A DNA stretch of 57,173 nucleotides from positions 1 through 57,173 of IMG/VR virus record IMGVR_UViG_3300042879_000407. One strand, given 5' to 3'. Origin of the DNA: a virus (Duplodnaviria; Caudoviricetes). A program made the translations under genes and the position numbers. The number at the start of each line of letters is the position of its first letter. The first letter of the stretch is position 1. The notes under the pieces are model-generated. The model was not told the DNA's origin, ran no database searches, and worked only from the letters and a program-made list of their open reading frames with translations. This document shows positions 1 through 47,416 of this stretch, in pieces.

Positions 1-117
1 ACTTCTACGATGCTACGGTTCTCGCGGCTATCTCCAACACGGACTACGAGGGCGAGATTCGCCAGTATGGTGACACGGTTAACATCCGCACCACGCCGGA
101 AATCACGATCCGCGACT
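1..117. repeat. Terminal overlap identical to 57057-57173 (circular assembly overlap)
   Basis: ACTTCTACGATGCT...ATCCGCGACT occurs at both ends and lies mid-gene. Confidence 0.97.
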
Positions 118-842
118 ACGTGAAGGGTCAGACCCTGACGGTTGAGAACCCGGACAAGCCGAAGATCCAACTCGTGATCGACAAGGGCGAGTATTTCGCG
201 TGCGTCGAGGACGATGTGGACAAGGTGCAGTCGGACATCAACCTGATGGACACTTGGACGAAGGACGCGTCGGAGCGCATGAAGATCAAGATTGATCAGC
301 GCGTGCTTACCGATATCCTCCCCGGCATTGCTGCTACCAATAAGGGTACGGCTGCTGGTGAGCAGTCGGCTTCCTTCAACCTCGGTTCGAACGCTTCGCC
401 GCTGACCGTCACGAAGGATGGCGCTGGTGGTACGGTCTCCGTGGTGGATCTGCTTGTCGATCTCGGTACGGTGCTTGACGAGGCCAACTGCCCTGAGCAG
501 AACCGCTTTGTCGTGATCCCGGCCAAGATGGCGGGTCTGATCAAGAAGTCGGAACTCAAGGACGCTTCGCTCACGGGCGACGGCACCTCGATCGTCCGCA
601 ATGGCCGCCTTGGTATGGTTGACCGTTTCACGCTCTATGTGAGTCACAACCTCAGTGTGTCGTCCGGCAAGTACAGCCTTATCGCTGGTAACAAGATGGG
701 CTTCACGTTCGCCTCGCAGATGACCAACATGGAAACCATCCGGTCGGAATCGACCTTTGGTAACATCGTGCGTGGTCTGCAGGTTTATGGCTACAAGGTC
801 GTGAAGGGCGAAGCCCTTGCTCAGGCCGTGGTGCAGTTCTAA
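1..842 (+). CDS. Major capsid protein, 3' part (full gene 56975..57056 + 1..842, 307 aa)
   Basis: The frame stays open across the junction (MSYPVSPGRPNYSGNFIPELWSGKLIENFYD...GDTVNIRT...VRGLQVYGYKVV). P22/T7-like coat motifs; follows portal and scaffold. Confidence 0.9.
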   Translation, partial: FYDATVLAAISNTDYEGEIRQYGDTVNIRTTPEITIRDYVKGQTLTVENPDKPKIQLVIDKGEYFACVEDDVDKVQSDINLMDTWTKDASERMKIKIDQRVLTDILPGIAATNKGTAAGEQSASFNLGSNASPLTVTKDGAGGTVSVVDLLVDLGTVLDEANCPEQNRFVVIPAKMAGLIKKSELKDASLTGDGTSIVRNGRLGMVDRFTLYVSHNLSVSSGKYSLIAGNKMGFTFASQMTNMETIRSESTFGNIVRGLQVYGYKVVKGEALAQAVVQF

Positions 843-19514: not shown

Positions 19515-22103
19515 ATGGCTAAAGCAGGACTGTCGTTTGCCAATCCGCTCCTTGCTCGGACGGGTGTGGGTGAAGTGCCGAATCCCTATGCTCCGCTGGC
19601 CCCCACTTCCAGTATTGGTATGGGTGGACTTGGGCAATCGGCTGCGGATATGGCGTTGCTTGGTGAGCAGTTAGCGGCTACTACGCAGTTTACCCTTCCG
19701 GAGATGCGCAAGCCTCCGGGTATTGCATTCAGTCCTTCGCGGAAGGAACTGTTTGTGCAGGGGCAGACGTTTGCTGCTGATGATGCTAGCCGAGCGTTGC
19801 AGTCTGAGGCGCTGCTTGGTGGCCCCGGTGTAGACCTACCAGCGGGTGGGGACTGGATGCCGCTTGATGAACAGGCATATCAGCAGTACCTCCAGTCTAT
19901 CCGTGAGCCGTCACTCGGGCGTCTTGCGTCCAAGTCATTCGGTCGGGGCGTCGATATCTCGCAGGCGCTCATGGGTCGTGGGTTGCAACTCGCCGGGGCG
20001 GAAGAACTCGGTGGTCGCATCGTCTCTGCACAAGAAGAAGATCTAGCCAAGACGCAGCCGTATGAACGTATGTTCACCGATATCGAGTCGGGGGGCGATG
20101 CAGTTGAGTGGCTGGTGGCAAACTTCGCCCAGCAAGGCCCGAACCTCATTGAGTCTATCTTCACCGCTGGCGTTGGCTTTTTGGGCGGCACGGCCGTTGG
20201 TGGCCCCGCTGCAGGCGCAGGCGCTGCACTCGCTGGACTCATGGGCAAGACTGCATTCAAAGAATCGGTCAAAGCCGCTGCTCGCAAGAAAGCCACGGGG
20301 CAAGCGCTAACCGCTGCAGAAAATAAACTGCTCCGTGAAGCCGCTGGTATTGCTGGTGCAGTTACCGCATCGTATGCTCAGAACCTTGCTACGGGGGCTG
20401 CTGATATCTATGGCGAACTCCGCGAACAAGGCGCAACTGCGGAAGACACTGACGCCAGAATCAAAGCGCTTTTAGGGTCAGTTCCTTATGCCGCACTTGA
20501 AACGCTCCCGGAATATTTCCTTGCTTCCAGAGTCCTTGGCGGCATTGGTGCGCCTAGTGCGTTACCTGCTGGTACTTCCCTTGGCCGCCGTGGGCTTGAG
20601 TTTGCTCGTCGCGGGGGTGTCGGTTTTGGTGTTGGTGGCTTGGCTGAGGGAACCACCGAGGCAGGACAAGAAGCCCTCCTACTGGGAATTTCTGGGCAAG
20701 ACCTGAGTAGCGACGAGGCAGTTAATCGCCTTATCAATTCATTTGCCGCTGGCTTTGGTATCGGTGGCCCGATTGGTGGTGTGGCTAACCTTCGCGGTAA
20801 TGCCCCTGCTAACCTACTCAACCCTGCACAGAGTACAGACCCAACACCACCTGCGCCGCCACCTCCTCCGAAACTGCCACTCGTAGTGGCTCCGGGTACA
20901 CAGGGGGAATTGTTTGGTGGAGTTGGGCCTGTTAGTCCCATTCCGGGACTTGCTGGTGGGGCTGCTGCCATTCCGGGAGTTGCCGGTCAGTACACTCAGG
21001 TTGGTGGTTTGGGTGTTGCCCCTGCCACTGAAGTTCCGATTACCCAGCAGGATTTGTTTAGCACTGACGTACTGCAAGCGGATATGTTTGGTGGGCCGCA
21101 AGTTCCAAGGGAGTACCCTGTAGGAGCGCCTGTTGAACCTACCGCAGAGTCGGTGCCAGTTGTTCCGGGGCAGTTGCCGTTTCAGTTTGCTCCCGCCGCG
21201 CCTACTGGGATGCGGTTTACCGATGTTCAACCTCCGCCGGATACCCAGATAGCGCAGCAGTTACAGGCACTGCAGCGGCAGGTTGAATTTGATCAAGCCA
21301 TGGCTCAACGCCGTGAGGCTGAGATCGCGCAGGCAGAAGCGCAGCGACAGTTACAACTTATTCCCCCCGCCCCAACGACACAACTACCCACACCGCGAAC
21401 GGTTAATCCTAGAGAACCACAGCAGTTGCCGTTGTTTGGGGCGCGGGGGCTTCCCCGCCCCTCTGGTGCTGAGCGGTTGCGCCGTGGTGCTACACCACTG
21501 CCTGAGACTGGCCCGACTGTACCGGTTACGCCACGCGAGAGCCTGCAGGTTGCTGGCCAGTTGCCGCTCTTTACCCAAGAAGGACAACCGTCAGTTGCTG
21601 CGCTTAAGGGAGCCGGGCTTCGCCGCAAAATAGTTCCAACGGAAGAGAAGGGTGGTAAGCAACGTCCGTCTGAACCAGCAGCGAAGATTCGTCAGGTCGC
21701 TGAGAAAATTAGCAAGCGGCAGCGTGTTGACCATACATACGATGACGGCAGTAGGTTTGTTGGAATTATAGACAACGAAGGCACTCTGATCAGCGGCACG
21801 TATACGTATGCTAATGGGGATGTGTTCGAAGGTACGTTCCGGGACAATAGCCCACACAACGGTCGTGTTATCTATGCAAATAAGTCTGAGGCCAAGTACA
21901 CCAAGGGCGAACCAACCTTAACCAAGGAAGCACCCGCTGGTGAAACCGCTGTAGAAACGCAGGAAGAAGGGCCGGTAGAAATTACATTGGAACTTGCCGA
22001 TGGTGACCGGATGACCATACCCGATGGGCAGAAATTCCTTGACAAACTCGACAAGGATATTGGAAAGTACGAGCGTTTTCTAGCCTGTCTCAATAGGAAA
22101 TAA
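19515..22103 (+). CDS. Large ejection protein (Gly-rich membrane segments, Pro/Gln linker, MORN-like repeats)
   Basis: AEGTTEAGQE motif, hydrophobic Gly zippers, YxxGxxFxG repeats. Confidence 0.7.
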   Translation: MAKAGLSFANPLLARTGVGEVPNPYAPLAPTSSIGMGGLGQSAADMALLGEQLAATTQFTLPEMRKPPGIAFSPSRKELFVQGQTFAADDASRALQSEALLGGPGVDLPAGGDWMPLDEQAYQQYLQSIREPSLGRLASKSFGRGVDISQALMGRGLQLAGAEELGGRIVSAQEEDLAKTQPYERMFTDIESGGDAVEWLVANFAQQGPNLIESIFTAGVGFLGGTAVGGPAAGAGAALAGLMGKTAFKESVKAAARKKATGQALTAAENKLLREAAGIAGAVTASYAQNLATGAADIYGELREQGATAEDTDARIKALLGSVPYAALETLPEYFLASRVLGGIGAPSALPAGTSLGRRGLEFARRGGVGFGVGGLAEGTTEAGQEALLLGISGQDLSSDEAVNRLINSFAAGFGIGGPIGGVANLRGNAPANLLNPAQSTDPTPPAPPPPPKLPLVVAPGTQGELFGGVGPVSPIPGLAGGAAAIPGVAGQYTQVGGLGVAPATEVPITQQDLFSTDVLQADMFGGPQVPREYPVGAPVEPTAESVPVVPGQLPFQFAPAAPTGMRFTDVQPPPDTQIAQQLQALQRQVEFDQAMAQRREAEIAQAEAQRQLQLIPPAPTTQLPTPRTVNPREPQQLPLFGARGLPRPSGAERLRRGATPLPETGPTVPVTPRESLQVAGQLPLFTQEGQPSVAALKGAGLRRKIVPTEEKGGKQRPSEPAAKIRQVAEKISKRQRVDHTYDDGSRFVGIIDNEGTLISGTYTYANGDVFEGTFRDNSPHNGRVIYANKSEAKYTKGEPTLTKEAPAGETAVETQEEGPVEITLELADGDRMTIPDGQKFLDKLDKDIGKYERFLACLNRK

Positions 22104-22106
22104 GCC

Positions 22107-22508
22107 ATGAAACAACGTCTTCGCTTAAGCGAATTGTACGATCTTGAAGACTTGGCACTGGAGACTGGGGCTAGTGTTGAATTTGCTGACGGGCGTAAGT
22201 TTAATACAAGTAAAGTTCAGGCTAAGCGTGTCAAAGAAGAACCGGTAGAAAAGCCTGTGGCCCGTGCGGACAACACTGCTGAAATTCTTAAGCAGATCGT
22301 ATTGCTACTCAGCCGCCCTGTTGAGGTGGTTGTTCCGCCCATGCCAGCACCACAGGTGACCGTAAGTCTTCCTCCCAAAGAAGAGGACGAGGACGAAGAT
22401 GAGTCCGAGGACAAACCGGTTCAGTGGGTCTTTGAGTTTGAGCGCAACTATAACGGCACAATCAAGCGCATTACTGCTACGCCGACTATGAAAGAGTCGC
22501 TAAACTAA
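22107..22508 (+). CDS. Hypothetical protein (Pro/Val and acidic stretches)
   Basis: 133-aa ORF directly after the previous stop. Confidence 0.6.
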   Translation: MKQRLRLSELYDLEDLALETGASVEFADGRKFNTSKVQAKRVKEEPVEKPVARADNTAEILKQIVLLLSRPVEVVVPPMPAPQVTVSLPPKEEDEDEDESEDKPVQWVFEFERNYNGTIKRITATPTMKESLN

Positions 22509-22516
22509 GGTGAAAC

Positions 22517-23254
22517 ATGACTGATAACGTAGGCTATACACCGGGCGTAGGTGCCACTGTTGCCGCCGATGAGATTGGCGGGGTACTCCATCAGCGAATT
22601 AAGTTGGTGCTTGGAGCAGATGGCGTTTCGGATGGCGACGTTTCAGCCACTAACCCTATACCAATCGCGACTCCAGCGCCTATTGATGTAACTGGGTCAA
22701 TAAGCGTTAGCAATTTCCCTGCGACTCAGCCGGTGTCTGGATCGGTAAGCGTTAGCAATTTCCCTGCGACTCAGCCAGTATCAGGCACGGTTAGTGTCGG
22801 CAACTTCCCCGCTACGCAGAACGTCAACATCGTCGGCGGGTCTAGCGGTAACGCAGCCGCAGGAGCGACTGGCGCGGCTGTTCCGGCGTCTGCCGATTAC
22901 ATTGGCTATAACTCCGGCGGCAACCTTGTCGGCGTCAGCGCGGCTAACCCGCTGCCGGTGGACATTGGCGCAGTTGGGGTGCTGGAAGTCACCGATGCCA
23001 ACGCTGAGTTGCTGCTGACGCGCATCCTGAACTATTTAAACGCCCCGCAAGGCTACGACAAGTCGTTGCAGCGTGGCAGGGTCACGGCGGTGCTGGAATC
23101 CGGCACGGTTACGACGGTAACCACGGTCACGACCGTTACGACCTGTTCGACGGTGACCAACCTTTCGACGATTGACACGCTTCAGGGCCGTATCCAAGTG
23201 TACGGGCAAAACCTTGCAGCATGGGCGGCAACTGTACGCTCTCGGATTACTTGA
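22517..23254 (+). CDS. Fibre-like protein with 15-aa repeats
   Basis: SVSNFPATQPVSG repeats, VSAANPLPV, TVT repeats. Confidence 0.6.
   Translation: MTDNVGYTPGVGATVAADEIGGVLHQRIKLVLGADGVSDGDVSATNPIPIATPAPIDVTGSISVSNFPATQPVSGSVSVSNFPATQPVSGTVSVGNFPATQNVNIVGGSSGNAAAGATGAAVPASADYIGYNSGGNLVGVSAANPLPVDIGAVGVLEVTDANAELLLTRILNYLNAPQGYDKSLQRGRVTAVLESGTVTTVTTVTTVTTCSTVTNLSTIDTLQGRIQVYGQNLAAWAATVRSRIT
22696..22830 (+). repeat. Three ~45-bp coding tandem repeats
   Basis: AGCGTTAGCAATTTCCCTGCGACTCAGCC twice plus a diverged third copy. Confidence 0.8.
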
Positions 23255-23263
23255 GGAACATAC

Positions 23264-24883
23264 ATGGCTAATACATTCAAGAAAGTCATAGACCGGTTGA
23301 TGTGGGCGCAAGTAGCGCCTACGCCTAACGCTCATGTTGCCGCGACGTCAATGTGTTCTGACCTCCGGTCGGACATCTCGCGTAACCCGTTTGTGTACCA
23401 GTTGGTTAGCAACACCGTACTGAACCGATACAACATTGTGTCAAAGGGATGGGCTGCAACGTCTTCCCCGGCCTTGGCTGGCACGTTTGGTGTTGGCTCT
23501 GCAATGGCTTTTGCGCCGTCATTTGGTCTTGTGGGTACGATTGCCGCAGGCGCTACAACGACTTCAGTTGTACTATCAACTGCGCTGCCGACCGCTGTTG
23601 GCCTCAATATGCTCGCCAATCGTGGCGGCTCGGGCGAATACGGATTCAAACTTCGCATCATTGACACGACCGCTGGCAAGACCGCTGAGCGTTACATCAC
23701 CGGCAACACCGCAGGCACGACGCCAACCATCACGGTGCTATCGTCGTTTGGATTTACTCCAGCCACAGGCGCAAGGTATGAAATCGTCGCTGGCCGCGTG
23801 TTTATGCTGGGTGCTGGTACGACGGCAAGCAACATTTGGCGCTCGTTCGAAGTTGCGTCGAACACGTTGTCAACGGGCCTTTCAACGACCGGTCTTCCCG
23901 CCACCATTGGTACGGACTCTGACATCCTTGTGCTAGACGAGCAGTACACGCCTTATGACTGCTCGCCCGGCGATGGAATGATTAAGGGCGCGTACAACTA
24001 TGACACAGGTGTTGTGTCACGTTATGCGCTGACTGCAACGGGCGCTGCCGCAGGCACTTTGACGGGCCAAGCGACCCTTGGTGACGCAGTAGTCGCAGCG
24101 AACGAGTACCGCAACTTTCAGATTCGTATTGTCGAGGACACCGTAAACACCACGGCAGTCGGACAGCGCCGCATCATTGCCTCGCACACCGCAGGTGCAA
24201 GCCCCGTTTACACGCTTGGGACGAACTGGTCTGTCACGCCGTCTGCCAATGCCAAATACGTTATTGAACTGCCGAACTTGATGCTACTCCGATCAAGCGC
24301 CACAACGACGGTATACACCTACAACTACACCGATGCCACGATCAACAACGGCACAAACAACATCACAGCGAACTCGTGGTCAACAACGTACTTTGGCGTG
24401 GCCCCGGCTGCTAACGCGGCCTCTGGTATGTGGATGCCGTCATGGGGCATCAAGCCAGATGCGAACCGTTACGCTCGTCATTCGTTTTGCTACTTCTTCC
24501 GTGGCGGCGCTGCAACGCTCGATGTGCTGGATATCGCTGCAACCATTACCGGAACTTGGACTGGCGCGATTACTTATGACGGTTCTCCGGGTACATTCCC
24601 GGCCACGGGATCATGCGGTGGTTATTCGCCATTTGAAAACGAGGGCCGTATGTTCTACATGAATTTGTACGTCGCCTCTGCGGTAAACCAGATATTCCGC
24701 TTTGATGTACAGAACCGCGTGTTGTCACCATTCACTGCAACGGACTTCTTGCAGGCTGGTACGGCTGCGGTCGGTAAGCGTATCGCGTGTTATGCGGCGC
24801 TGGATGGTACGGACACCTACGACGTCGTGCTGCTCAACTCGCACCTGTCCACGGTTTGTCAAGAAATGGTGGTGCTGGTATGA
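23264..24883 (+). CDS. Putative beta-propeller-like virion appendage protein
   Basis: 539 aa, Thr/Gly/aromatic-rich, internally repeated RIIxxT.G...R.I...T.G segments. Confidence 0.5.
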   Translation: MANTFKKVIDRLMWAQVAPTPNAHVAATSMCSDLRSDISRNPFVYQLVSNTVLNRYNIVSKGWAATSSPALAGTFGVGSAMAFAPSFGLVGTIAAGATTTSVVLSTALPTAVGLNMLANRGGSGEYGFKLRIIDTTAGKTAERYITGNTAGTTPTITVLSSFGFTPATGARYEIVAGRVFMLGAGTTASNIWRSFEVASNTLSTGLSTTGLPATIGTDSDILVLDEQYTPYDCSPGDGMIKGAYNYDTGVVSRYALTATGAAAGTLTGQATLGDAVVAANEYRNFQIRIVEDTVNTTAVGQRRIIASHTAGASPVYTLGTNWSVTPSANAKYVIELPNLMLLRSSATTTVYTYNYTDATINNGTNNITANSWSTTYFGVAPAANAASGMWMPSWGIKPDANRYARHSFCYFFRGGAATLDVLDIAATITGTWTGAITYDGSPGTFPATGSCGGYSPFENEGRMFYMNLYVASAVNQIFRFDVQNRVLSPFTATDFLQAGTAAVGKRIACYAALDGTDTYDVVLLNSHLSTVCQEMVVLV

Positions 24884-25048: not shown

Positions 25049-25234
25049 ATGTTTCTCACGCTTTTGCAATCGCAAGTATCTGTTGCCGAAGTAGAGCGTC
25101 GGCCTAAGCGGCATGTTAAGTTTCGTAAGTTTGAGGAAGATGTCACTCCTGACCTGTTGCAACAAGACGACGCATTGGCAACTGATCTGATAGTGGCACT
25201 GGTCACTAAGGGGTTCTTCGATGGCAAATTCTAA
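25049..25234 (+). CDS. Small hypothetical protein
   Basis: Fills the gap and overlaps the next start. Confidence 0.5.
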   Translation: MFLTLLQSQVSVAEVERRPKRHVKFRKFEEDVTPDLLQQDDALATDLIVALVTKGFFDGKF

Positions 25235-28200
25235 AGTCCAAGCCTGTCTTATCAATTCGACCGGCATCACCGCCAATGATCGTAAAAAGATCGCTGCGTT
25301 AGCCAAGCAGTATTCAACCGGTGACGTGACGCAGGACTACATTCTTGCCACGACGGATATGCTCACCTACTTGCGTGATGCTAAGACTGCCGTTGAACAA
25401 GCCATGGCTAACGTAAAAGCCGGTGGTGATAACGTAGCAGTGATGCCTGCAGAACCTACTGTGGAGGAAGACGGAACCCCAAAAGGCGAAGCGGCAGCAG
25501 CCGCCAAGACAGCCAAGATTGAGACTGAATACGGCTCGGCACAGGAAGCATGGGATGACTTTGCTCCGGATGATGTGCCGTGGTCTGCGCTTACTACCAA
25601 GGAAAAAGAAATCTGGTCGGAGAAGGTTCGCGCTAATCGTGTATCACAAGCACTTGCAATCAGCATTGCCGGTGATGCAAGAGACAGAATAACTAACCCC
25701 GATTTCCCGGAAGGGGAAGAGGCTACAGACCTTACCGTACTGGATGCGCTGAAGGATGATATCAGCGCGGCGGAGACTGCCAAGGATACCAAAACTTTTC
25801 GTGAGGCTATCCAGACAGTAATCTTCCATGCCTACTTTGATACCGACTCCAATAGTCGCAAAGAGATTACCCCACTGGCACTGGAGTTCCTGAGCCGTAC
25901 CGACTTTAGTCTTTCGCAGATTGGTGAGATCGACCGTATTATTGTCGAGCAAGCCAACGGTATGGAATCACTTGAGGCTGTATACACTCGCGGCGCTGCC
26001 AAGGGGGAGTACAAGCCGTGGTTCTCATATGCCATGAGCAGGCAGTTGCTACCGAACATCCAGACGCGTTTGGTTGGTTTGCCTCTGGATGAAGCCAAGC
26101 AACTCGTATCGGATAGATTGATTAAAATTACTCAATTGCCTGAGGAAACGCAAAAGAAGGTTACCAAGATCGCATCCACCGAAGTGCCGGGTGCCAAGGG
26201 TAAGATCACAAAAGACACTCTGGCTCAGATCGTGCGTACTCCGCAGGCTTTGTTGGCGCAGTTGATCGACGATCTTATTACGCGTAACCGTACTGTACGT
26301 AGCCTGAATCAACCGGTCGATAATCCGGATAAGGCCGCAGAACGCAAGTCGTTCCCCAACGTGGTGGAACTTGCCAAGTCGCTGTACGGTAAACTGTCCG
26401 AGGAAGGTCGCAACTACATCTACCGTGGCAAGCGGCTAAGCGAATACTTCGACGACAAGGGTAACCCCTACATCCTCAAGTCAGACGGGCGGTATCTGAT
26501 CGTTCCGGAAGCCATTACCCCAGAACGTCAGGCTGAGATCGAAGCGCAACAGAAAGCCGCCGAACAGCAAGACCTTGCCGATGGCATCATTACCAGTTTT
26601 GACGATGCAGAGGAAGGTAATTTTATTCGTGCCGATGGCGTTCCGCTTAAGGAACCTATGTCACTCGGTCGCATACGTCTGCTTGTAAACTCGTTCGTGA
26701 ATAAACTTTATGCGAAACCTCGCATATTCATCTTCCGTAACCGGGAAGATCTAAAAGCCAAGAACCCTGATCTATATGCTCGTGCTGCTGCAGCGCGTAG
26801 GCAAGGCGACTTCGACACCATCGAAGGTATGGGGTATTCGTTTGGCCCGAACGTGATCATCTTCACGGACTTCATCCGGACTGAACAGCAACTTAAGTTC
26901 GTACTGGCACACGAAACACTTGGCCACTTTGGATTCCGTGCGGTTCTACCCAAGGCGGAACTGGATAGAATTCTCAATAAGATCTATGACATTGATCCCA
27001 ATGTCCGGGCGGCTGTGGATGCTGCGGTTGAAATCCGCAAGATGGATAAACTTGAAGCCATCGAAGAATACATGGCTGACTATGCCGCTGATGTGGACGC
27101 TTCCATCCTGCTTCGTATTTGGAATGCGCTGAAGGATGTACTTAGCAAACTGACTGGGATTGAGTTCAAGGATAACGATGCCCGGTATCTCGTAAATCTT
27201 GCACGCAAGTACGTGCGCCGTGGAGACAACGGTAACATCCTCAGTGCAACCAGTATCGCGCAAGACCTGACGGCGCTTAACGATGACGCCTACTCTGGGC
27301 GTTTTGCCATGAAGGGAGTTGGTGATCTTGCTTCCCGTGCGTACAGCGCTGGTGCGATGAACCGTAGGTACGGCCCGACTGGTGGGTTGACCGGCGTCGT
27401 GCAAGCATTCAAGGATAAGTTTTTGGGAGCGCAGCAGAACGTACCCGGAACTGTCGCACGTATACTTGAACAGGTACAGACACTCGATAACAAAGCACGG
27501 CGTAGTCAGGGCTTGAGCATTATTTATAACATGCTTGAACGCCAGCAACAGCACGCCAGAGGGTTGCTCTCCAAGTACCAGCGCATGACCGAGTATAGCC
27601 ATCGTCCGGACTTCGGTACGTTTGGTGAACTGACCGGCGTTGCCGGTGTGACTGAGGAGGAGAAAGAGAAGGCCGGTGAACTACTGGCCCGTGCGGCTTT
27701 GTACAAGGCGGCGCAAGCGACTGACACTGCAATTAAATCCTACAAGAGTCTGGTTGTTATCGACCCGAACACTGGCGAGATTTCCATTGACCCAGTGGTT
27801 CGTGCGCAACTTGAGAAGGATGGATTTGTCACGGCTGAAGAGTTCCGCAAGGGCTTTGACATTACTTACTCCAACGGGGAGAAGATCAACTTCAGAGCGG
27901 ATGTGGATGAGAACAGCGATATCTGGAAGATCTACGTAGAGATGCGGCAAGCCGTGAACGAAGCGGCTATTGACATGATGCTGTCGAACTACGAAGCGTC
28001 TCAGGTGGAGAACAACCGTATCGTCAACCGCCTCAATGATGGGCGGCGCAGCGCCAACGTGTTCTCTGAAGATGATCTGAAGGCGATCCGCACTGCGGCA
28101 CAGATATACCAAGACATGCGCTACAAGGGTAGTGATGTCGCCAACGCTGGCGTGGAAGTAAAGAAGAAGGCTGCTGCTGAATCTGAGGCATTTGCCATTG

Positions 28201-30887
28201 CCTTCGGCCGTGCTTTGTTCAACGACGAAGTGTTCAAGGTATGGATGCGGGATACAACCGCAGACCCCGCCATCGTCAAAGATCTTGAGGAATTCCAGAA
28301 GGCAGAGTACGACGACATTCGGAATGCCCTGCCTAGCCTGCGAGCCAAGATCGTTGGATCCAAAGACGCCAAGCAGCAACAGTCGTTTGCTATTCAGAAA
28401 GCAGTACGTGATCTGTTCTTGTTTGACTTGCAGTCTCGCAACTCGGACTACTACGCCAAGAGAACAATCCTCGGATCGTATGTTCCGTTTACCCGCCGTG
28501 GTACTGAGCAAGTCAAACTCGTTGCCTACGACAAGAACGGAAACCCGATCAAGTTGGATGAGACCATCCGCGCTACTCTGCCGTACTTCCAGTTTGAGGA
28601 CAGAGCAGAGGCGCTGCAGGCTGCGGAGGACGTTGACAAGATTCTTGGCGGCGACCGTGAATGGACTATGCTGGATGACGATGGGGCAGAAGTCACTGTA
28701 TTCCTGCGTCCTGAAGTAGACCGTGTACGGCAAACTCCGGATCTCACCGAAGCCGTGAACTTTAACGAGTTCGTGTACGTGCTGAACCGGTTGAACATCA
28801 ACCTCACGCCAGAGGTGCGAGAGAAAATCGTTACGACTCTCACGGCACAAAACGCCAGAGCGCGTAAGAACTTGATGCGATCCGGTACGGAAGGTTGGGA
28901 TAAAGATGTTATCCGTTCTGTGTCGGAGTTCTTGGAAACAACTGCACACGTATCGGCAAAGAAACTGTATCGCCATCGTATTGATGACGTGATGCTGCGT
29001 GAGTCGTACTGGAAGGGAGATCGCAATCTTCTCAATAGTCTGAAGCAGGCTGTCGATAACGCCCAGACCGATGGCGAGCGAGCAAGAGCGCAGCGAGCGT
29101 ATGACGAATACGCTTACATGTATAAGTACATGGCTCCCACCGGGCGCGGACGCACGGTGCAAATCGCTGGTAAGGAAGAACCCACGTTGGGCCGTGGCGA
29201 AGATGCTAGGGAAGAAGCCAAGCAAGTCCTGCGTTGGTATAGCGAAACCAGCAACATCACCGATAGCACTGAAGATATGCTCTCGGGTGAGACCGGCTCG
29301 CGGCTTAAGATGTTGACGGTACTCATGCAGTTGGGTGGCTCGGTAGCCACTGCCGTCATTAACCTTGCCTCGCTTGCTACCCACAGCCTGCCTTATCTTT
29401 CCTACTACAACCCCAAGACTGGTGTGGGTGGTGGGTACGGAGAAGCAAAAGCATCTTCTGCTTTGTGGGCAGCGGCACGGGATCTTAAGAACCCGAACTT
29501 GTCTGAGGCGGAGTTCCTGCAGAAGATCCTCAACGACAACACGTATGCCGACTATGGTCTTACCGAGGACGAGGCTGAGTTCTTGTTCGACCAGACGGAG
29601 CAAGGCACCCTGCAGGCCGCGCAGTTCAATGCGCTTGTGGGTACAGCACGCGGTAAGGTGTTCTCCAACCGTGCGGCAGCGGCAATCAAGTTGTGGATGA
29701 GCATGTTCTCTTACACGGAACAGATGAACCGCCGTGCAACGGCACTGGCTGCATACCGCCTTGAGAAAGAACGTGCTGTCGCGCAAGGGATGTCACAACA
29801 AGTTGCTATAAAAGAAGCAACCGAGGCTGCCCGTACTGCGGTCAACACATCTCAGGGTGAATACGCAATGTTTAACCGCCCCGAGATGGCTCGCGGCAAC
29901 GTGCTGCAGTACGTGTTTATGTACAAACAGTTCGTGATCATCACGGTGCAGTTGCTTCGGGCTATGCCTAAGAAAGGCCAAGCCATGATGCTTGGCTTCC
30001 TGTTGCTAACTTCTGGCTTGAAGGGCTTGCCGTTCGCGGAAGATATCTTCGACATTATCGACACCATCATGCAGAAGTTGGGGCTTACCACCGCGAGCAT
30101 CGAAAAGGAAATGTCCGAGTGGATTGATGCTGTGGCTCCGGGGCTTACTCCGGTCGCCATGCGCGGCATACTTGATCAGATGACGGGGGCCACACTGTCC
30201 AGCCGCTTGGGTATGGGCGATCTGGTTCCTCTCACCGGAGCATTCCGCGCAGGCGCGTCTCCTATACGGGAGTTGGAGAACTTCGCTGGCCCTGTGGTCG
30301 GTGGTGTCAGTGGCCTTGTGGGTATGGCTGGTAACCTCACGCAGTACGGTGCGGAAGCAATTGGTCTCCGAGATGACACTACTTCGATGGAGTCCATCCT
30401 GCGAGAGTCTCCGCTTGCATTCGTCCGTGCAGTAGGCGACGGCTCTGCGTATCTAAGCGACGGCAGGATTACCAACACGCGTGGCCAAGTGGTAAGTGAA
30501 GATGCGCCGATTACAACAACACTTGCTAGGTTCTTAGGATTTTATCCGGCGATTGCTTCGCAGCAAAACGACATCGTGCGCTTGTCCAAGTACGTGTCTG
30601 ACTACGCTAAGGATATTAAAGCGGAGTACACAAGTGCTTACGTCAAGGCGCGACTTGATGGTGATGCCGAGCGCATGAACCAGATCGTGGCAGATGTTAA
30701 CGAATGGAACGCCGACGCAGAAGGCACTGGCCTTGTGATATCAAACTTCCGCAAGTCAGCCGAACGCGCTGCCAAAGAAGCAGAACGTCCGACCGCTGCG
30801 AGGTTTATGAAGTCTGCGTCTAAGGCAGTACGCCCGGAGACTGCTCAGTTACTGGAGATCTACGGCATCCCGGTCGAAGAGTTATAA
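25221..30887 (+). CDS. Giant polyvalent ejection protein (zincin-like metallopeptidase motif, PLxRFG-like region)
   Basis: 1888 aa; AHETLGHFG...EEYMA; YVPFTRRG. Confidence 0.7.
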   Translation: MANSKVQACLINSTGITANDRKKIAALAKQYSTGDVTQDYILATTDMLTYLRDAKTAVEQAMANVKAGGDNVAVMPAEPTVEEDGTPKGEAAAAAKTAKIETEYGSAQEAWDDFAPDDVPWSALTTKEKEIWSEKVRANRVSQALAISIAGDARDRITNPDFPEGEEATDLTVLDALKDDISAAETAKDTKTFREAIQTVIFHAYFDTDSNSRKEITPLALEFLSRTDFSLSQIGEIDRIIVEQANGMESLEAVYTRGAAKGEYKPWFSYAMSRQLLPNIQTRLVGLPLDEAKQLVSDRLIKITQLPEETQKKVTKIASTEVPGAKGKITKDTLAQIVRTPQALLAQLIDDLITRNRTVRSLNQPVDNPDKAAERKSFPNVVELAKSLYGKLSEEGRNYIYRGKRLSEYFDDKGNPYILKSDGRYLIVPEAITPERQAEIEAQQKAAEQQDLADGIITSFDDAEEGNFIRADGVPLKEPMSLGRIRLLVNSFVNKLYAKPRIFIFRNREDLKAKNPDLYARAAAARRQGDFDTIEGMGYSFGPNVIIFTDFIRTEQQLKFVLAHETLGHFGFRAVLPKAELDRILNKIYDIDPNVRAAVDAAVEIRKMDKLEAIEEYMADYAADVDASILLRIWNALKDVLSKLTGIEFKDNDARYLVNLARKYVRRGDNGNILSATSIAQDLTALNDDAYSGRFAMKGVGDLASRAYSAGAMNRRYGPTGGLTGVVQAFKDKFLGAQQNVPGTVARILEQVQTLDNKARRSQGLSIIYNMLERQQQHARGLLSKYQRMTEYSHRPDFGTFGELTGVAGVTEEEKEKAGELLARAALYKAAQATDTAIKSYKSLVVIDPNTGEISIDPVVRAQLEKDGFVTAEEFRKGFDITYSNGEKINFRADVDENSDIWKIYVEMRQAVNEAAIDMMLSNYEASQVENNRIVNRLNDGRRSANVFSEDDLKAIRTAAQIYQDMRYKGSDVANAGVEVKKKAAAESEAFAIAFGRALFNDEVFKVWMRDTTADPAIVKDLEEFQKAEYDDIRNALPSLRAKIVGSKDAKQQQSFAIQKAVRDLFLFDLQSRNSDYYAKRTILGSYVPFTRRGTEQVKLVAYDKNGNPIKLDETIRATLPYFQFEDRAEALQAAEDVDKILGGDREWTMLDDDGAEVTVFLRPEVDRVRQTPDLTEAVNFNEFVYVLNRLNINLTPEVREKIVTTLTAQNARARKNLMRSGTEGWDKDVIRSVSEFLETTAHVSAKKLYRHRIDDVMLRESYWKGDRNLLNSLKQAVDNAQTDGERARAQRAYDEYAYMYKYMAPTGRGRTVQIAGKEEPTLGRGEDAREEAKQVLRWYSETSNITDSTEDMLSGETGSRLKMLTVLMQLGGSVATAVINLASLATHSLPYLSYYNPKTGVGGGYGEAKASSALWAAARDLKNPNLSEAEFLQKILNDNTYADYGLTEDEAEFLFDQTEQGTLQAAQFNALVGTARGKVFSNRAAAAIKLWMSMFSYTEQMNRRATALAAYRLEKERAVAQGMSQQVAIKEATEAARTAVNTSQGEYAMFNRPEMARGNVLQYVFMYKQFVIITVQLLRAMPKKGQAMMLGFLLLTSGLKGLPFAEDIFDIIDTIMQKLGLTTASIEKEMSEWIDAVAPGLTPVAMRGILDQMTGATLSSRLGMGDLVPLTGAFRAGASPIRELENFAGPVVGGVSGLVGMAGNLTQYGAEAIGLRDDTTSMESILRESPLAFVRAVGDGSAYLSDGRITNTRGQVVSEDAPITTTLARFLGFYPAIASQQNDIVRLSKYVSDYAKDIKAEYTSAYVKARLDGDAERMNQIVADVNEWNADAEGTGLVISNFRKSAERAAKEAERPTAARFMKSASKAVRPETAQLLEIYGIPVEEL

Positions 30888-33713
30888 CGCACGTAACTGA
30901 CCAAGGGCCAGATCCTCTGCGGTCTGGCTTTCCTTGTCCAAGATGCCATGCAATCTAGGGTGATTGAGATTGACGCCGACGACGTAAGTCTGCCCGAGTT
31001 TGATGGGCGAGTCCTTACCCAAGTACGCCTTCTGGGTCTTAGGGGTAGCGATCACGCTTTCGTCAGTAAGTTCTTGTATGAACGATTTGTAGTCCGCGCC
31101 ACGGGAAGCAAGCCATCGGCGGAAGTGCGCCCGGTCGAACATAACAGTACCGTGGTCGAAGTAATCCCCGGCGCTCTTGCGGTACAGATCGAACCTAACG
31201 ACCACGCCTGACCGGGGTAGCCGCGAGAAATCCACCGTTGGCTTCTGGTTAGTCTGATGGAAAACGGTAAGCGCCTTGTCTGCTGTGTCACTAAGATACT
31301 CAGCAATGATGTCAAAGGCGTCAGACTTCTGCTCTGCCACTGTTCTCCTTATTGCACCCACTTGCGCCAAGACCCATTCAATCCCATGGCGGTGGTCGAA
31401 TTTGATCAGTCCCCATTCACTGGCAAACCTACCGGCCAAGTCTGCAAGGATCAAAGCCTGTTCCCAGTAGCGTTCCTCACCTACGAACTTGCATGAGTAC
31501 CGCTTGTTGAATGTAGTCGTGGCTTCGGCTATCGCCGCTCGCACACCGTCTGGCCCCATAGCGATAAGGTTATGGATGAACACGCGACCGGCTGCGCCAT
31601 GGTTGGCCGCTAAGAACGTGTAGATCTTTCTGCCTGCCTCGCTGTCTGCAACAAACAAAGGACTAGGACGGACGCTAACCTCAAGCAGTCGAGCAAGTTG
31701 TGCGTCTGTATCCAAACCGGATGCAAGTAGTTTACTTGCCATTGACTTATTAGTAGACAGAGTTACTGGCATGGCGAACGTCTTGGCGTCTCGTTCTTCG
31801 GCGTTGCGGTTGAGCCTAGCCTTGTCGCGGCCCTGACTTACCCAGTACAGGAAGTCACCCACATCCTTGTCGGCCATCATCGTGGCCTCGTCAATCGTCA
31901 TAGGCATGTTGGAGTACAGACCCATGCGGCCGAACAAAGTGTTCTGTGTGTACTTGGCAGCGAAGTGCAACTTGTCGGGAGTACCCCAGATGGATTGCAT
32001 CCACAACTGAGCAAGCGTCTTGCCGCCACCGGTCGGGCCGTAGAGCGAAATGGTCAAGCCCTTCAGTCCACTGAATGCGTACAAAGGAGAGGAGAAACTT
32101 ACGCAAAGTGCAAACATATGGGTGGATAGTGTTGCCTTCTCCAGAAGCCTAGTGAACTCCACCCACTCTTCCAGTTTGCCAGCGGTAGCGTATAGGTCAT
32201 TACCAAGTTTGCTGGACACAGCGGCCAGTGTGGTCTTGTCCTCTTCAACGCTTCCGTCTGCAGCGCGGCGAATGATCGTGTCACCGATTACAAACTGGGA
32301 GAAGTTCTCCTTCCACCCCATGGTAGCGTACATGTTGGTCATGGTGCGGCGCTGCCGCAGTTCATCCATGTAGGCTCGTAACATATGTTGAAAGTATCCG
32401 GTTTGATGTTTGCCGTTAAGTACAATCCCTTGATCAGCAATCGCGCCGGGGAACTCCCGGCTGCCCTCGGCCAAGTACGCTTGTCTCAGTACAAGTTCTT
32501 GCCACCCGATATGGGGGCGCTTCCAGTGGTACCGCACAACTTCGTAGCCAAGTGATTCATCCCTACCATACGACACCGGATAGATATCGAACTTGCATAC
32601 ATCAATATCCGAATCGTCTATGGTCAACTTAATCCCATCAGCGGTACGCTTGTAGGGTTTCGGCACCGGCACATCCGTTGCCGCCGGGTCAATGGCGTCA
32701 GTCGAGACGGCGACCTCTTGGTATTGCACACCAAGTCGGGCGGGGCTACCGATCTTATCCTTAAACTTACAGCCCTTACATCCACCGGGGCGGTCGGAGT
32801 CGAACTTGGCGCAGGTCGTGGGGCCAGTAGTCACCCGCTTCCATTGGTGCAGTTTGCTAATGGTCTGAGCCGGGTCAAACTGCGGGTGGTTCTCGCTCCA
32901 TGCAATAGCGGTAGCGTCCGGGTCAGCGGTGTACGCCGCAATACCCAGCAAGTTGTACCACTGAGGCTCGCTCACCTCGCTCTGGTTCTTGATCGCCCAG
33001 CCTATCTGCTGGCACTTCGCAGCCACAATCGTTGCATTGGCGGGAGGAAACTCAGCCGCTACCTTCAGACTGTCTGATAACTTACTAACCCGTTTCGTAC
33101 TAGGGTGGCTCATTAAATGAGCCTGTAGTGCAGTCTGCACTACCTCTACTGTAGTTGGGGCAGAGTCAAGAAGTAGTGTGACCTCATTGCCATTCTTGGG
33201 GTTGTGCGTCCCTATTGGGCGCAGCACAAGGGCGCTGTTGGCAGTAAGCCCAGCGTCCACATCAAACCCATGCGCGGCCGTAGCGGCCTTCAGCGCCTCT
33301 GCCAGTGGCTTCCATTCATCCGGTGGCAGTTCACGATCCAATACCCAGTAGACATGCAGCCCGTTACCAGAATGCACGATCATGGGTTTAGGCAAGTCCG
33401 CATCCTTGACGAACTTACCTAATGCTTTGAGTCCCTCCTTCCATGAAGGGAACGGCTTACCTTCGCCACAGTCAACGTCGAGTACCAGTACCTTGGTAAG
33501 TTTTACGTTGTCCTGCTTGCGGCTACCTTTCTCCACGAAACTGGAGATTGCGAAATATGTGTTGTTGCCTCGTCGATCTGCGACGACGACGGCCTTGGCG
33601 AGTTCTTCTACAGTCGAAAAGAATCCCTGCTTGTTACCGTCAGGGTTAATGACAGTCGTAACAAAGAAACCTTCCGATGGTAGAACCCGCTGAAGAAAAT
33701 TCAACGTGTCCAT
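30882..33713 (-). CDS. Primase-helicase (AEP-type primase, Cys cluster, DUF927-like helicase)
   Basis: VLDVDCG, HSGNGLHVYW, TC..F.....GCKGC, YGPTGGGKT, TIDE. Confidence 0.85.
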   Translation of the reverse strand: MDTLNFLQRVLPSEGFFVTTVINPDGNKQGFFSTVEELAKAVVVADRRGNNTYFAISSFVEKGSRKQDNVKLTKVLVLDVDCGEGKPFPSWKEGLKALGKFVKDADLPKPMIVHSGNGLHVYWVLDRELPPDEWKPLAEALKAATAAHGFDVDAGLTANSALVLRPIGTHNPKNGNEVTLLLDSAPTTVEVVQTALQAHLMSHPSTKRVSKLSDSLKVAAEFPPANATIVAAKCQQIGWAIKNQSEVSEPQWYNLLGIAAYTADPDATAIAWSENHPQFDPAQTISKLHQWKRVTTGPTTCAKFDSDRPGGCKGCKFKDKIGSPARLGVQYQEVAVSTDAIDPAATDVPVPKPYKRTADGIKLTIDDSDIDVCKFDIYPVSYGRDESLGYEVVRYHWKRPHIGWQELVLRQAYLAEGSREFPGAIADQGIVLNGKHQTGYFQHMLRAYMDELRQRRTMTNMYATMGWKENFSQFVIGDTIIRRAADGSVEEDKTTLAAVSSKLGNDLYATAGKLEEWVEFTRLLEKATLSTHMFALCVSFSSPLYAFSGLKGLTISLYGPTGGGKTLAQLWMQSIWGTPDKLHFAAKYTQNTLFGRMGLYSNMPMTIDEATMMADKDVGDFLYWVSQGRDKARLNRNAEERDAKTFAMPVTLSTNKSMASKLLASGLDTDAQLARLLEVSVRPSPLFVADSEAGRKIYTFLAANHGAAGRVFIHNLIAMGPDGVRAAIAEATTTFNKRYSCKFVGEERYWEQALILADLAGRFASEWGLIKFDHRHGIEWVLAQVGAIRRTVAEQKSDAFDIIAEYLSDTADKALTVFHQTNQKPTVDFSRLPRSGVVVRFDLYRKSAGDYFDHGTVMFDRAHFRRWLASRGADYKSFIQELTDESVIATPKTQKAYLGKDSPIKLGQTYVVGVNLNHPRLHGILDKESQTAEDLALGQLRAL

Positions 33714-43217: not shown

Positions 43218-43859
43218 TTACTTAACCAGTTTTGCCACGACAGTCATGGCAGTCATGCGGTTTAGCATCTCCGGGTCAATGCTCGGAGCAGGCGGCTTCT
43301 CTTGCTTGGCCGGTACTTTCAAGTGCCGCTGCTTGGCATCTTCTGGTACGTAATCCCACAGTGGTGGCCATGCTTTCAGTGCGCTGCTCAGTGTGCTATG
43401 TGCAGCCAAAAGTGTCATCAGAAAATTACGAAGTTCGTTAGAGTCGTTGTTCAGTTTAGTTAACTGAGTCTCAACCCTGCTGATCTCATCGTATATCTCT
43501 TGCTCCTCCGGAGTTGAAGGGGGAGTAGTGATCTTGTAGGAAAGCATATTGCACCGATACCCGCTATCAATACCGGGCAGTTTAGTTTTATCGGGGAACG
43601 GACGTTCTCTTGTCAAACGAAAGTCACGGTTAACACCGATACCACAGAAGGACACAATCGAAATACTTCCACTAGTCTCAAAGAACCCAGCAGGCAGCGT
43701 CTGCAATTCCGGATACTTGGAGTACAACAAGTGATAGAACTTGTCACCAATGTCAGGTGAGTAGGAACTTATAACTTTGGTTCGCCTGTCTTCAAAAATC
43801 CTTCTGCCATTACTGCAGATTTCATCTCTGAGAGAATCACTTATACGTACAACAGCCAT
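43218..43859 (-). CDS. Nmad5-like (nucleotide-modification-associated domain 5) protein
   Basis: MAVVRIS...TLSSALKAWPPLWDYVPE; SD GGAGG. Confidence 0.6.
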   Translation of the reverse strand: MAVVRISDSLRDEICSNGRRIFEDRRTKVISSYSPDIGDKFYHLLYSKYPELQTLPAGFFETSGSISIVSFCGIGVNRDFRLTRERPFPDKTKLPGIDSGYRCNMLSYKITTPPSTPEEQEIYDEISRVETQLTKLNNDSNELRNFLMTLLAAHSTLSSALKAWPPLWDYVPEDAKQRHLKVPAKQEKPPAPSIDPEMLNRMTAMTVVAKLVK

Positions 43860-43879
43860 AGTAGTTACCTCCGTAACAG

Positions 43880-46239: not shown

Positions 46240-47238
46240 TTAGAACAGAACATTCTGATGGTTGACTGCCCACTTGGTGAACGCTGCCGTATTGCACAGA
46301 TCAGCGTTGCGCCGCACCGCAGTTGACATGGCAAGGACGCTGAACTCCGGAGGCATACGCTCGAAATAGGTGCAGGCACGATCCAGATTGGATTCGGTAC
46401 ACCGCTGTGCAAGCGCACCCGTCAAGGCATACAGCGTGGCAGGGTCTGTCGGTACGTCAGCACCAGTCGGGTTGAGCATGATGCCATCGGGGTTGGGAAG
46501 TTTACGGAAGATACGCAAGAACCCAACGAACTCGGCGGCAGCACCCTCACCGACTGCACCCTTGAATGACTCAAACTCTGATTCACTTGGCACAACACCA
46601 AGCACATCGGACACACCCTCAACCCACGAACGCGGCGTAGGATTCTGGTCACGCTGTGCATCGAAGTCATGCAGCAGGCCCGGACGGAAACGGATAAACG
46701 AAATCACCTCGGGCTTTACGTCATGGCTAATGGCCCACGCAGTCCAGTCATCAAGGTGAGTCTCCAACTCATACACCGTCTCGCGGTTACGCAGATGGCT
46801 AAGCACCCGACCTGCACCTGCCCGATCAGACTGGCGATTGCCAGTGCCAACAACCATCCAACCATCGGCAATCAAAGCACCGTGCAAGTTACGCGCTTGG
46901 CAGATGTTGGCAATAACTTTCTGGATGTCAGCACCTGCTTGGTTACGATCGTCAAAGCACAAGATGCCACCCCGACCATCGTCATGCTTGCTGCCCTTGG
47001 CAGGAAACCAGTCGGGCAACTTGTACCCAAAGGACTGCGAGGAAGTCATCATGTCGGGAACACCGAAGTCCTCGACCAACATCGTAGGTACGTGCTTTTC
47101 GATGTACCCTACACCCAGATCCGTTGCGGACTCCTCGACGATGGTAGTCTTGCCACCACCCGGTGGGCCTTCGATGCAGACGGTACGATTGATGGGGAAT
47201 AAACTCTTGATCGTGTTTTTTAACAGTGTCGGACGCAT
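46240..47238 (-). CDS. MoxR-like AAA+ ATPase
   Basis: GPPGGGKT, CFDD, TGNR..DRAG, LRNR, PTPRSW. Confidence 0.85.
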   Translation of the reverse strand: MRPTLLKNTIKSLFPINRTVCIEGPPGGGKTTIVEESATDLGVGYIEKHVPTMLVEDFGVPDMMTSSQSFGYKLPDWFPAKGSKHDDGRGGILCFDDRNQAGADIQKVIANICQARNLHGALIADGWMVVGTGNRQSDRAGAGRVLSHLRNRETVYELETHLDDWTAWAISHDVKPEVISFIRFRPGLLHDFDAQRDQNPTPRSWVEGVSDVLGVVPSESEFESFKGAVGEGAAAEFVGFLRIFRKLPNPDGIMLNPTGADVPTDPATLYALTGALAQRCTESNLDRACTYFERMPPEFSVLAMSTAVRRNADLCNTAAFTKWAVNHQNVLF

Positions 47239-47239
47239 T

Positions 47240-47416
47240 TCACTTATCTCCATGCTTGTGTTTGTCGTGATCAGGGCCGTAGGACACTACGGTTCCACTC
47301 CGCTCATCCCTAGCAGCCTTGGCTGCAGGCTTACTCTCAAAGTACAGAGGCTCGTTACCCTCGCCCCTTACAATTGCTCCACCTTTGCCGTGCCGTAGCA
47401 CGAATAAACGCTTCAT
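47240..47416 (-). CDS. 58-aa protein heading the AAA module (not in ORF track)
   Basis: MKRLFVLRHG...YFESKPAAKAARD...VSYGPDH; SD GAGGAG. Confidence 0.75.
   Translation of the reverse strand: MKRLFVLRHGKGGAIVRGEGNEPLYFESKPAAKAARDERSGTVVSYGPDHDKHKHGDK

Follow-up and report, generated by a model that had tools for sequence, protein, structure and literature searches.

A conserved array of predicted sliding-clamp-binding motifs in a putatively ejected protein of an uncultured podovirus

Introduction

Can a bacteriophage protein that arrives with the DNA reach the replication hub of the host before any viral gene is expressed? The question is raised by P0001, the product of one open reading frame (ORF) in IMG/VR virus record IMGVR_UViG_3300042879_000407. 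The complete record, 57,173 bp with direct terminal repeats, is the stretch of DNA analysed here and is called the window below; according to the annotation of its genes, it has a podovirus gene content with a P22/T7-like structural module. An initial annotation had noticed six short motifs in P0001 resembling those through which bacterial proteins bind the sliding clamp DnaN, and had proposed that P0001 is an injected, membrane-anchored, multivalent clamp binder. Replication and repair enzymes are known to carry single clamp motifs as handles, and such motifs also occur in a few regulators that phages make once infection has begun. The sequences and structural models analysed here suggest, with a probability that we put at roughly 0.6, that the array consists of genuine DnaN-binding motifs on the disordered tether of a virion-borne, probably ejected protein.

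Results

An array of short motifs in a disordered linker

All six motifs were found in frame in ORF 19515-22103, where they had been placed initially (Table 1). Five match the pattern Q..[LM]F, in which a dot stands for any residue. Shuffling the whole protein gave an expectation of 0.21 such matches and shuffling only the linker (residues 440-700) gave 0.10; in either case none of 20,000 shuffles reached five. Of the eight instances in a rough proteome of the window, made up of 66 non-overlapping ORFs (18,032 aa), five fall in P0001. The sixth motif, first recorded as QLPF, proved to be the local form (QLPFQF) of a hexameric module, Q..L.F, that is conserved in the family. DNA repeats in 20800-21700 span only the 15-20 nt that encode the motifs, and the motifs are therefore not the product of a recent segmental duplication.

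A full-length AlphaFold2 model of P0001, built on a 24-row alignment, agreed with the earlier description of the linker as disordered. The predicted local distance difference test score (pLDDT) is below 50 across most of residues 439-720, namely over 439-578, 617-637, 660-679 and 701-719, and residues 617-720 are mostly disordered. The linker is also rich in Pro, with 29 Pro and 11 Gln in the 139 residues at 439-577 and 19 Pro and 8 Gln in the 104 residues at 617-720.

The motifs are retained across relatives

A word-indexed search revealed 65 homologues of P0001 of near-equal length, and an exhaustive profile-free search raised the number to 335 at E<=0.001; among the matches listed, 82 of the 127 newly found homologues are giants of 1,500-3,476 aa. 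P0001 and its 65 near-length relatives contain 123 Q..[LM]F motifs against 12.6 expected, and the 82 giants contain 150 against 45 expected, 104 of the 150 lying between residues 400 and 800. We then defined a linker set as the 380 residues that follow the conserved end of the N-domain; such linkers were obtained from 135 of 193 family proteins, the other 58 being left out for a missing anchor or truncation. The initial annotation had proposed counting the motif in homologues against shuffled linkers, and this count came out clearly in its favour: 224 instances in the 135 linkers against 10.0 expected, a 22-fold enrichment, with 20 as the highest count in 200 shuffles. The density of Q..[LM]F is 5.07 per 1000 aa in the linkers and 0.17 elsewhere in the same proteins.

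The enrichment is specific to the residues of the motif. Replacing Gln at position 1 by Asn, Glu, Lys, Arg, Pro, Gly or Ala gave 0-6 instances in the same linkers, and replacing Phe at position 5 by Tyr or Trp gave 3 and 0, all at or below expectation. Ile or Val at position 4 was found twice (9.3 expected), and the reversed motif was found 10 times (9.9 expected). Asp at position 3 is 2.6-fold enriched. Hexameric forms are also enriched, with 72 instances of Q..[LM].F against 10.3 expected and 17 of Q[LM].L[PG]L (for example QLELPL, QLDLPL and QLLLPL) against 0.53 expected, altered controls of the latter giving 0-2. In the homologues P0043, P0046 and P0051 the hexamer stands at the aligned site of the QQLPLF of module 1, and in P0083 it likewise replaces this sequence, as judged by the PRPS flank.

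This specificity bears on one alternative, namely that the motifs are generic hydrophobic stickers for capsid packing, membrane contact or self-association, with a coincidental likeness to clamp motifs. The disordered, Pro/Gly-rich context and the Gly that follows some of the motifs (QGELFGG, QADMFGG, QLPLFG) would suit such stickers. However, a sticker would not need a Gln four residues upstream, the position at which seven other residues reduce 224 instances to no more than 6, and it would not exclude Tyr, Trp, Ile and Val. We consider this explanation quite improbable.

Mean identity in the 24-row alignment is 0.69 at the Gln, Leu/Met and Phe positions that define the six motifs and 0.44 at the remaining linker positions. 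Q637, Q682 and F686 are present in 24 of 24 rows and L640 and F641 in 23; in the flanks, P649, L655 and G658 of module 1 and A700 of module 2 are likewise invariant (24/24). Four of the six motifs (those starting at 521, 553, 637 and 682) are conserved, and QGELF and QQDLF are confined to certain lineages; relatives have between 0 and 4 copies of the QGELF type. The distance between modules 1 and 2 has a median of 45 aa, and it lies within 40-53 in 23 of the 26 proteins in which both strict module patterns are found. Of the 58 complete ORFs, 51 have one or more motifs and 33 have two or more. As far as sequences can tell, the linker counts show that the motif is retained where other linker positions drift. 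The motif is short enough for an accidental match, but the shuffles, the conservation and the enrichment in homologues mean that the array is not a chance occurrence, for which we leave a practically negligible probability.

The linker follows the rules of clamp-binding motifs

According to the available text of a review of clamp ligands (PMC11139829), the canonical motifs are Q-phi-x-[L/M]-[F/L] and Q-phi-x-[L/M]-x-[F/L], and QLxLF is the tightest-binding class. The Gln, the Leu/Met at position 4 and the terminal Phe/Leu count most; Ile, Phe or Trp at position 4 or Trp at the last position gives weaker binding, and Asp is slightly favoured at position 3. The same text describes the clamp pocket as conserved, the clamps of different organisms binding the same ligands. 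Judged by sequence, the linker grammar of the P0001 family reproduces these published tolerances point by point, and the most telling result is that the relatives appear to use the hexameric clamp form besides the pentamer. In P0001 itself, the two QLPLF and QADMF fit the published patterns fully. QGELF and QQDLF deviate at position 2, in the manner of the functional motifs QHDLF and QPDLF, both with a non-aliphatic position 2, through which the MuC protein of phage Mu acts according to the available text of PMC12867686.

As had been suggested at the outset, we modelled the complex with DnaN, using residues 628-700 of P0001, which contain both QLPLF modules, with the 24-row alignment and two chains of Escherichia coli DnaN. 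The model scored 0.71 (0.71, 0.71 and 0.72 in separate runs), against 0.00 for the best of three controls; among solved complexes 58 of 80 attain the mark used for this score, as do 2 of 110 mismatched pairs. At least 86% of contacts are shared between runs, with a partner pLDDT of at least 54. In the model, residues 634-641 and 645 of module 1 contact one copy of DnaN, and residues 680-686, 688, 690-693 and 695-698 of module 2 contact the other. These contacts cover 14 and 16 of the 18 residues of pocket subsites I and II that are listed in the available text of PMC11139829. The ~45-residue spacing of the modules would fit bivalent engagement of a single clamp dimer. The claim that P0001 is a clamp binder is therefore backed by motif grammar, by selection and by in silico docking to DnaN, all of them computational.

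A second candidate clamp client and the absence of a recognisable phage clamp

On the strand opposite to the structural genes, the window encodes a family-A DNA polymerase, a DUF927 primase/helicase, a helicase, an exonuclease and an AAA ATPase. The ATPase (ORF 46240-47253) has a weak AAA_5 match, belongs to phrog_1297 and ends in QNVLF (Table 1), which makes it a candidate second clamp client. Of its 120 best homologues (73-100% identical), 118 end in Q..[LM]F, mostly as HQ[DNS]VLF with a variable position 2. This C-terminal Q.VLF may be a clamp-binding motif or a handle for another partner; the terminus hints at the clamp as a recurring partner in the lineage, which we take as a lead only. 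A single QNTLF was also seen at residue 590 of the DUF927 primase/helicase (30882-33713, minus strand).

The conserved ATPase terminus could also be read as part of a phage-internal interaction network, in which the motifs of P0001 would bind a divergent phage-encoded clamp or another ring rather than host DnaN. Several ORFs of the replication module match no family and could conceal such a ring. However, a search of the window with four clamp families (PF00712, PF02768, PF02916 and PF00705) gave no match at E<=1, although a divergent clamp may escape these families. Among the candidates, a 282-aa neighbour resembles DUF3150, which is a lead only, and a 271-aa ORF has no sequence match in the PDB below E 0.2. 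Furthermore, a virion protein acting at entry would meet host proteins only. We regard a phage-encoded ring as a very improbable target.

Architecture of P0001

P0001 matched no Pfam, PHROG or NCBIfam model, and a Foldseek search of the full model against the PDB returned nothing at E<=0.001. In the C-terminal part, VIA-align revealed similarity of the beta repeats (residues 736-802 in the AlphaFold2 model) to MORN proteins (Z 9.9, root-mean-square deviation 2.6 over 73 aligned residues; further matches at Z 9.1 and 7.5), and Pfam MORN was matched in the homologue P0078 (E 2.9e-7). The remaining regions are listed in Table 1.

Folded alone, the N-domain gave a pLDDT of 80.7 and a predicted template modelling score of 0.71. 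Its closest solved structures in VIA-align were generic helical hairpins (best Z 6.5) with no membrane fold among the matches, and VIA-align of the whole P0001 model likewise matched the N-domain to generic helices only. The Gly/Ala-rich segments of the domain reach Kyte-Doolittle means of 1.2-1.4 over 19 residues at their peaks. With these values and no solved membrane fold matched, the membrane anchoring proposed in the initial annotation is weakly founded. In BFVD, the N-domain model matched N-terminal pieces of large phage proteins, five of them at E<=0.001; one of the five is named "large polyvalent protein-associated domain", and further such names appear at weaker E. The C-terminal cargo of the matched proteins varies by name (RelA/SpoT, helicase, ADP-ribosyltransferase, transglycosylase), and a language-model atlas gave an LPD22 lead, found in 15% of one cluster. 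The modelled fold may serve polyvalent proteins widely, as a module for delivery or anchoring.

Table 1. Features of P0001 and of related genes in the window
Feature	Position (nt)	Strand	Remarks
ORF P0001, 862 aa	19515..22103	+	helical N-domain, motif-array linker, MORN-like repeats, C-terminal helix
Conserved helical N-domain, residues 62-430	19698..20804	+	with Gly/Ala-rich hydrophobic helices
Disordered Pro-rich linker 1, residues 439-577	20829..21245	+	pLDDT <50, composition
QGELF, residues 463-467	20901..20915	+	non-aliphatic position 2; kept in 11-12 of 24 rows
QQDLF, residues 511-515	21045..21059	+	poorly conserved, Q in 8 of 24 rows
QADMF, residues 521-525	21075..21089	+	Q in 22 and F in 21 of 24 rows
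QLPFQF, residues 553-558	21171..21188	+	Q553 in 23 and F558 in 21 of 24 rows
Gln/Ala-rich long helix, residues 578-615	21246..21359	+	AlphaFold2
Module 1, QLPLF 637-641 (nt 21423-21437)	21414..21488	+	conserved basic Pro-rich flank
Module 2, QLPLF 682-686 (nt 21558-21572)	21552..21614	+	conserved short helix flank
MORN-like beta repeats, residues 734-806	21714..21932	+	fold match
Conserved C-terminal helix, residues 838-861	22026..22097	+	alignment, AlphaFold2
SLT transglycosylase-domain internal-virion-type protein, 631 aa	17616..19511	+	Pfam SLT E 4e-17
PLxRFG ("tail-700") protein, 1888 aa	25221..30887	+	NF032893 E 1.2e-55; HETLGH motif
C-terminal QNVLF of AAA ATPase (ORF 46240-47253)	46243..46257	-	candidate second clamp client

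P0001 is the split-off part of a giant, probably virion-borne protein

The family is common in IMG/VR, where 110 stretches were confirmed to carry it. Gene order is conserved in 80 IMG/VR loci, running from phrog_511 through a 418-aa protein and the SLT protein to the P0001-like gene, and the SLT gene lies directly upstream of the P0001-like gene in 74 of the 80 viral loci. The giant homologues align with P0001 N-terminally and further on with window ORF 25221-30887, the PLxRFG protein; the giant P0067, for example, is 34% identical to the latter over 1456 columns. Among the 58 complete ORFs, 55 are one giant ORF (about 2,290-3,030 aa) of which the P0001-like part is the N-terminal third, two are split and one lacks the PLxRFG part. 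Split loci like that of the window were found only in L010 and L021, with 3.6-4.0 kb between the two parts. P0001 alone has 0 NCBIfam matches, NF032893 being found in the separate ORF and in fused relatives such as P0067. Because NF032893 sits in ORF 25221-30887, P0001 is a split-off part and not a PLxRFG member by domain, and on sequence grounds the most fitting description is that of an N-terminal third split off from a giant virion protein of the polyvalent type. Gene order, the fusion to PLxRFG proteins and the mass-spectrometric verification in virions that is noted in the record of one such protein, from Pseudomonas phage H66, make its initial designation as an ejection protein reasonable, packaging and ejection of P0001 itself being deduced from this context.

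In the window, three family-less genes (133, 245 and 539 aa; 22107-24883, plus strand) separate P0001 from the PLxRFG protein. The 245-aa protein (22517-23254, plus strand) matches no family and contains three tandem units of ~14 residues (VSVSNFPATQPVSG-like) and, close to the C-terminus, a TVTTVTTVTT run.

ORF 25221-30887 carries HETLGH, a HEXXXH motif, at 26907-26924 (plus strand), in a region that matched no Pfam model; P0067 has HESMGH. Iyer et al. 2017 (PMC5512222), in the available text, assign such HEXXXH motifs to zincin-like peptidases of polyvalent proteins and propose that these peptidases process polyvalent proteins. This opens another explanation of the array, in which the motifs serve a different partner, either as processing sites of the zincin-like peptidase, cut before Leu-Phe, or as docking sites for a phage assembly factor responsible for capsid loading. 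The motifs do lie in an inter-domain linker of a family whose C-terminal part bears HEXXXH, and the conserved module flanks are longer than a minimal clamp motif. However, a cleavage or assembly site gives no reason for interchangeable pentamers and hexamers or for clamp-like residue tolerances; the split proteins, which need no separation, keep the motifs, as the count in P0001 and its near-length relatives illustrates; and the available text of PMC5512222 describes no such site motif (the words "clamp" and "linker" occur 0 times each). The pentamer/hexamer equivalence and the retention in split proteins, both read from sequences, speak against another partner as the sole explanation. We consider it unlikely; it is nevertheless the main rival, and it may coexist with clamp binding.

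Virus record and possible hosts

The structural side of the window encodes a portal/adaptor, a major head protein, tail fibres and spikes, together with an 811-aa phrog_511 "internal virion protein". The major head protein gene (3-842, plus strand) is open at its 5' end, and its profile match begins at position 91 of 410; the terminal repeat of the record therefore cuts through this gene, and the two ends of the record are an artefact, produced by a circular or circularly permuted assembly. ORF 43218-43934 (minus strand) has a weak match to Nmad5 (nucleotide modification associated domain 5; E 2.3e-4, below the curated cut-off) and adjoins a 390-aa phrog_1314 "HNH endonuclease" protein, a neighbourhood that may hint at DNA modification.

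Transfer RNA genes, sought in the window as a clue to the host, gave no hit. The sole matches in bacterial genomes were a 3-kb contig of a Verrucomicrobiota metagenome-assembled genome (MAG) and a 56-kb contig of a Burkholderiaceae MAG, the latter probably a binned phage. A tblastn search with P0001 against 50,697 cultured-phage records gave no match, and since P0001 also matches no Pfam, PHROG or NCBIfam family, we found no cultured model phage for it. By polymerase, the nearest cultured phages are Rhizobium phage RHph_TM3_14A and Pseudomonas phage KPP25.

Discussion

The computational case for clamp binding, drawn from sequences and models, is unusually coherent. Several observations weigh against it. 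With regard to the motifs, QGELF and QQDLF lack the aliphatic residue at position 2, and QLPFQF has Phe at position 4, which the available text of PMC11139829 rates as weaker. The array is also not universal in the family: 37 of the 135 linkers have no strict motif, some belonging to truncated proteins and others to distant ones with only a Q-G-V-L-D-[IV]-F variant or nothing, and 7 of the 58 complete ORFs likewise lack a strict motif. Since the homologues are related, the shuffle counts overstate their independence. Outside the family, the whole genomes of RHph_TM3_14A and KPP25 contain no frame of at least 150 aa with at least two motifs, and a scan of the 3787-aa PLxRFG giant of Pseudomonas phage H66 (gp60), whose record carries a note of mass-spectrometric verification in virions, found none of the motifs. 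The array is therefore not general to PLxRFG proteins and belongs to the clade with the P0001 N-domain.

The docking result has to be read with similar care. The calibration of the tool is only rough here because we used our own alignment and a three-chain job; the pass may reflect memory, since clamp-peptide complexes have already been solved; and E. coli DnaN is a stand-in for the clamp of the actual host. In addition, the conserved flanks (PRPS...RLRRG and PSVAALKGAG) exceed what a clamp motif needs and could mean another partner. There is no obvious need for a clamp, because the phage encodes a family-A polymerase and a primase/helicase. Finally, exposure of the linker to the cytoplasm is assumed.

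With these points in mind, binding of host DnaN by the array would lead to the following mechanism. P0001 would enter with the DNA, and its helical N-domain, as part of the ejection or envelope-spanning machinery, would stay with the envelope-spanning apparatus, exposing the ~280-residue disordered segment that follows it to the cytoplasm. There, the two near-invariant QLPLF motifs, ~45 residues apart, would occupy the pair of pockets in a single clamp dimer; additional avidity, or the capture of further clamps, would come from the weaker motifs (QADMF, QLPFQF, QGELF and QQDLF). The outcome would be a tether between the entry apparatus, plus the giant effector in fused relatives, and the clamps of the host. 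Such a tether would bring the entering genome and its cargo to clamp-loaded DNA or, alternatively, would hold clamps for the early DNA transactions of the phage; captured clamps would be blocked to other clients.

The initial annotation had offered both sequestration of DnaN and its recruitment to the entering DNA. Internal proteins are present at ~10 copies per virion, and clamp dimers at hundreds per cell; on these figures, a sequestration that stalls replication through the injected dose is doubtful, and tethering or recruitment would seem likelier than global sequestration. If produced abundantly as a late structural protein, P0001 could also titrate clamps in the late phase of infection.

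A broader picture can be drawn, in which a widespread clade of uncultured podoviruses delivers a multivalent clamp trap within the virion. Its QLxLF pair would plug both pockets of the clamp, and the further motifs would gather rings at the site of DNA entry before expression begins; the ejection apparatus and the giant effector would thereby be linked to the replication hub, and the ATPase Q.VLF would mark the clamp as a recurring target. We regard this full picture as conceivable, with the odds somewhat against it.

If clamp binding by P0001 is true, the virus would reach the replication hub of the host before gene expression, by means of a protein arriving with the DNA, and the giant, mostly unannotated polyvalent virion proteins would gain a concrete and testable host target. 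Peptides offer a rapid test of the claim, given how short the motifs are and that the clamp is conserved and readily purified. The design of clamp inhibitors could also profit from a naturally occurring bivalent peptide that fills both pockets of the clamp.

Comparison with known systems

The motif and its target are known; the carrier, the valency and the timing would be new. In open-access PMC and bioRxiv full text, supplements excluded, we found no virion, internal-virion or ejection protein with clamp motifs, and neither a paper on the podovirus Phi-GT1 nor literature hits for PLxRFG contributed anything further. Like P0001, the T7 gp14-gp16 and P22 E-proteins belong to an internal-virion block beside a podovirus transglycosylase protein; similarity to P0001 in sequence or fold was not detected, and they are not known to carry clamp motifs. 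The polyvalent/PLxRFG giants (H66 gp60 and those of F116-like phages) share NF032893 and HEXXXH with the split partner of P0001. They differ in that H66 gp60 is without the motifs, and P0001 is itself without a match in the three family collections.

Phage proteins that act on DnaN or on its loader include Twort gp168, G1 gp240 and N4 gp8, the last of which targets HolA, according to the available text of PMC3594737. Together with MuC, these proteins, a transcription activator and replication shut-off factors, are made after infection, whereas the gene of P0001 belongs to the internal-virion block and its product would already be there when the DNA enters.

The closest parallel in grammar is found in bacterial clamp clients, namely Pol III alpha, Pol II, Pol IV (QLVLGL), Pol V (QLNLF) and Hda, which, in the available text of PMC11139829, carry the same type of motif in disordered segments; QADMF of P0001 matches, letter for letter, the motif inside E. 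coli Pol III alpha. However, the known clients are enzymes of DNA metabolism with one or two motifs each, whereas the array of up to six in P0001 sits on a probable structural or virion protein with no recognisable DNA enzyme domain, its two strongest motifs standing at a fixed spacing of ~45 residues.

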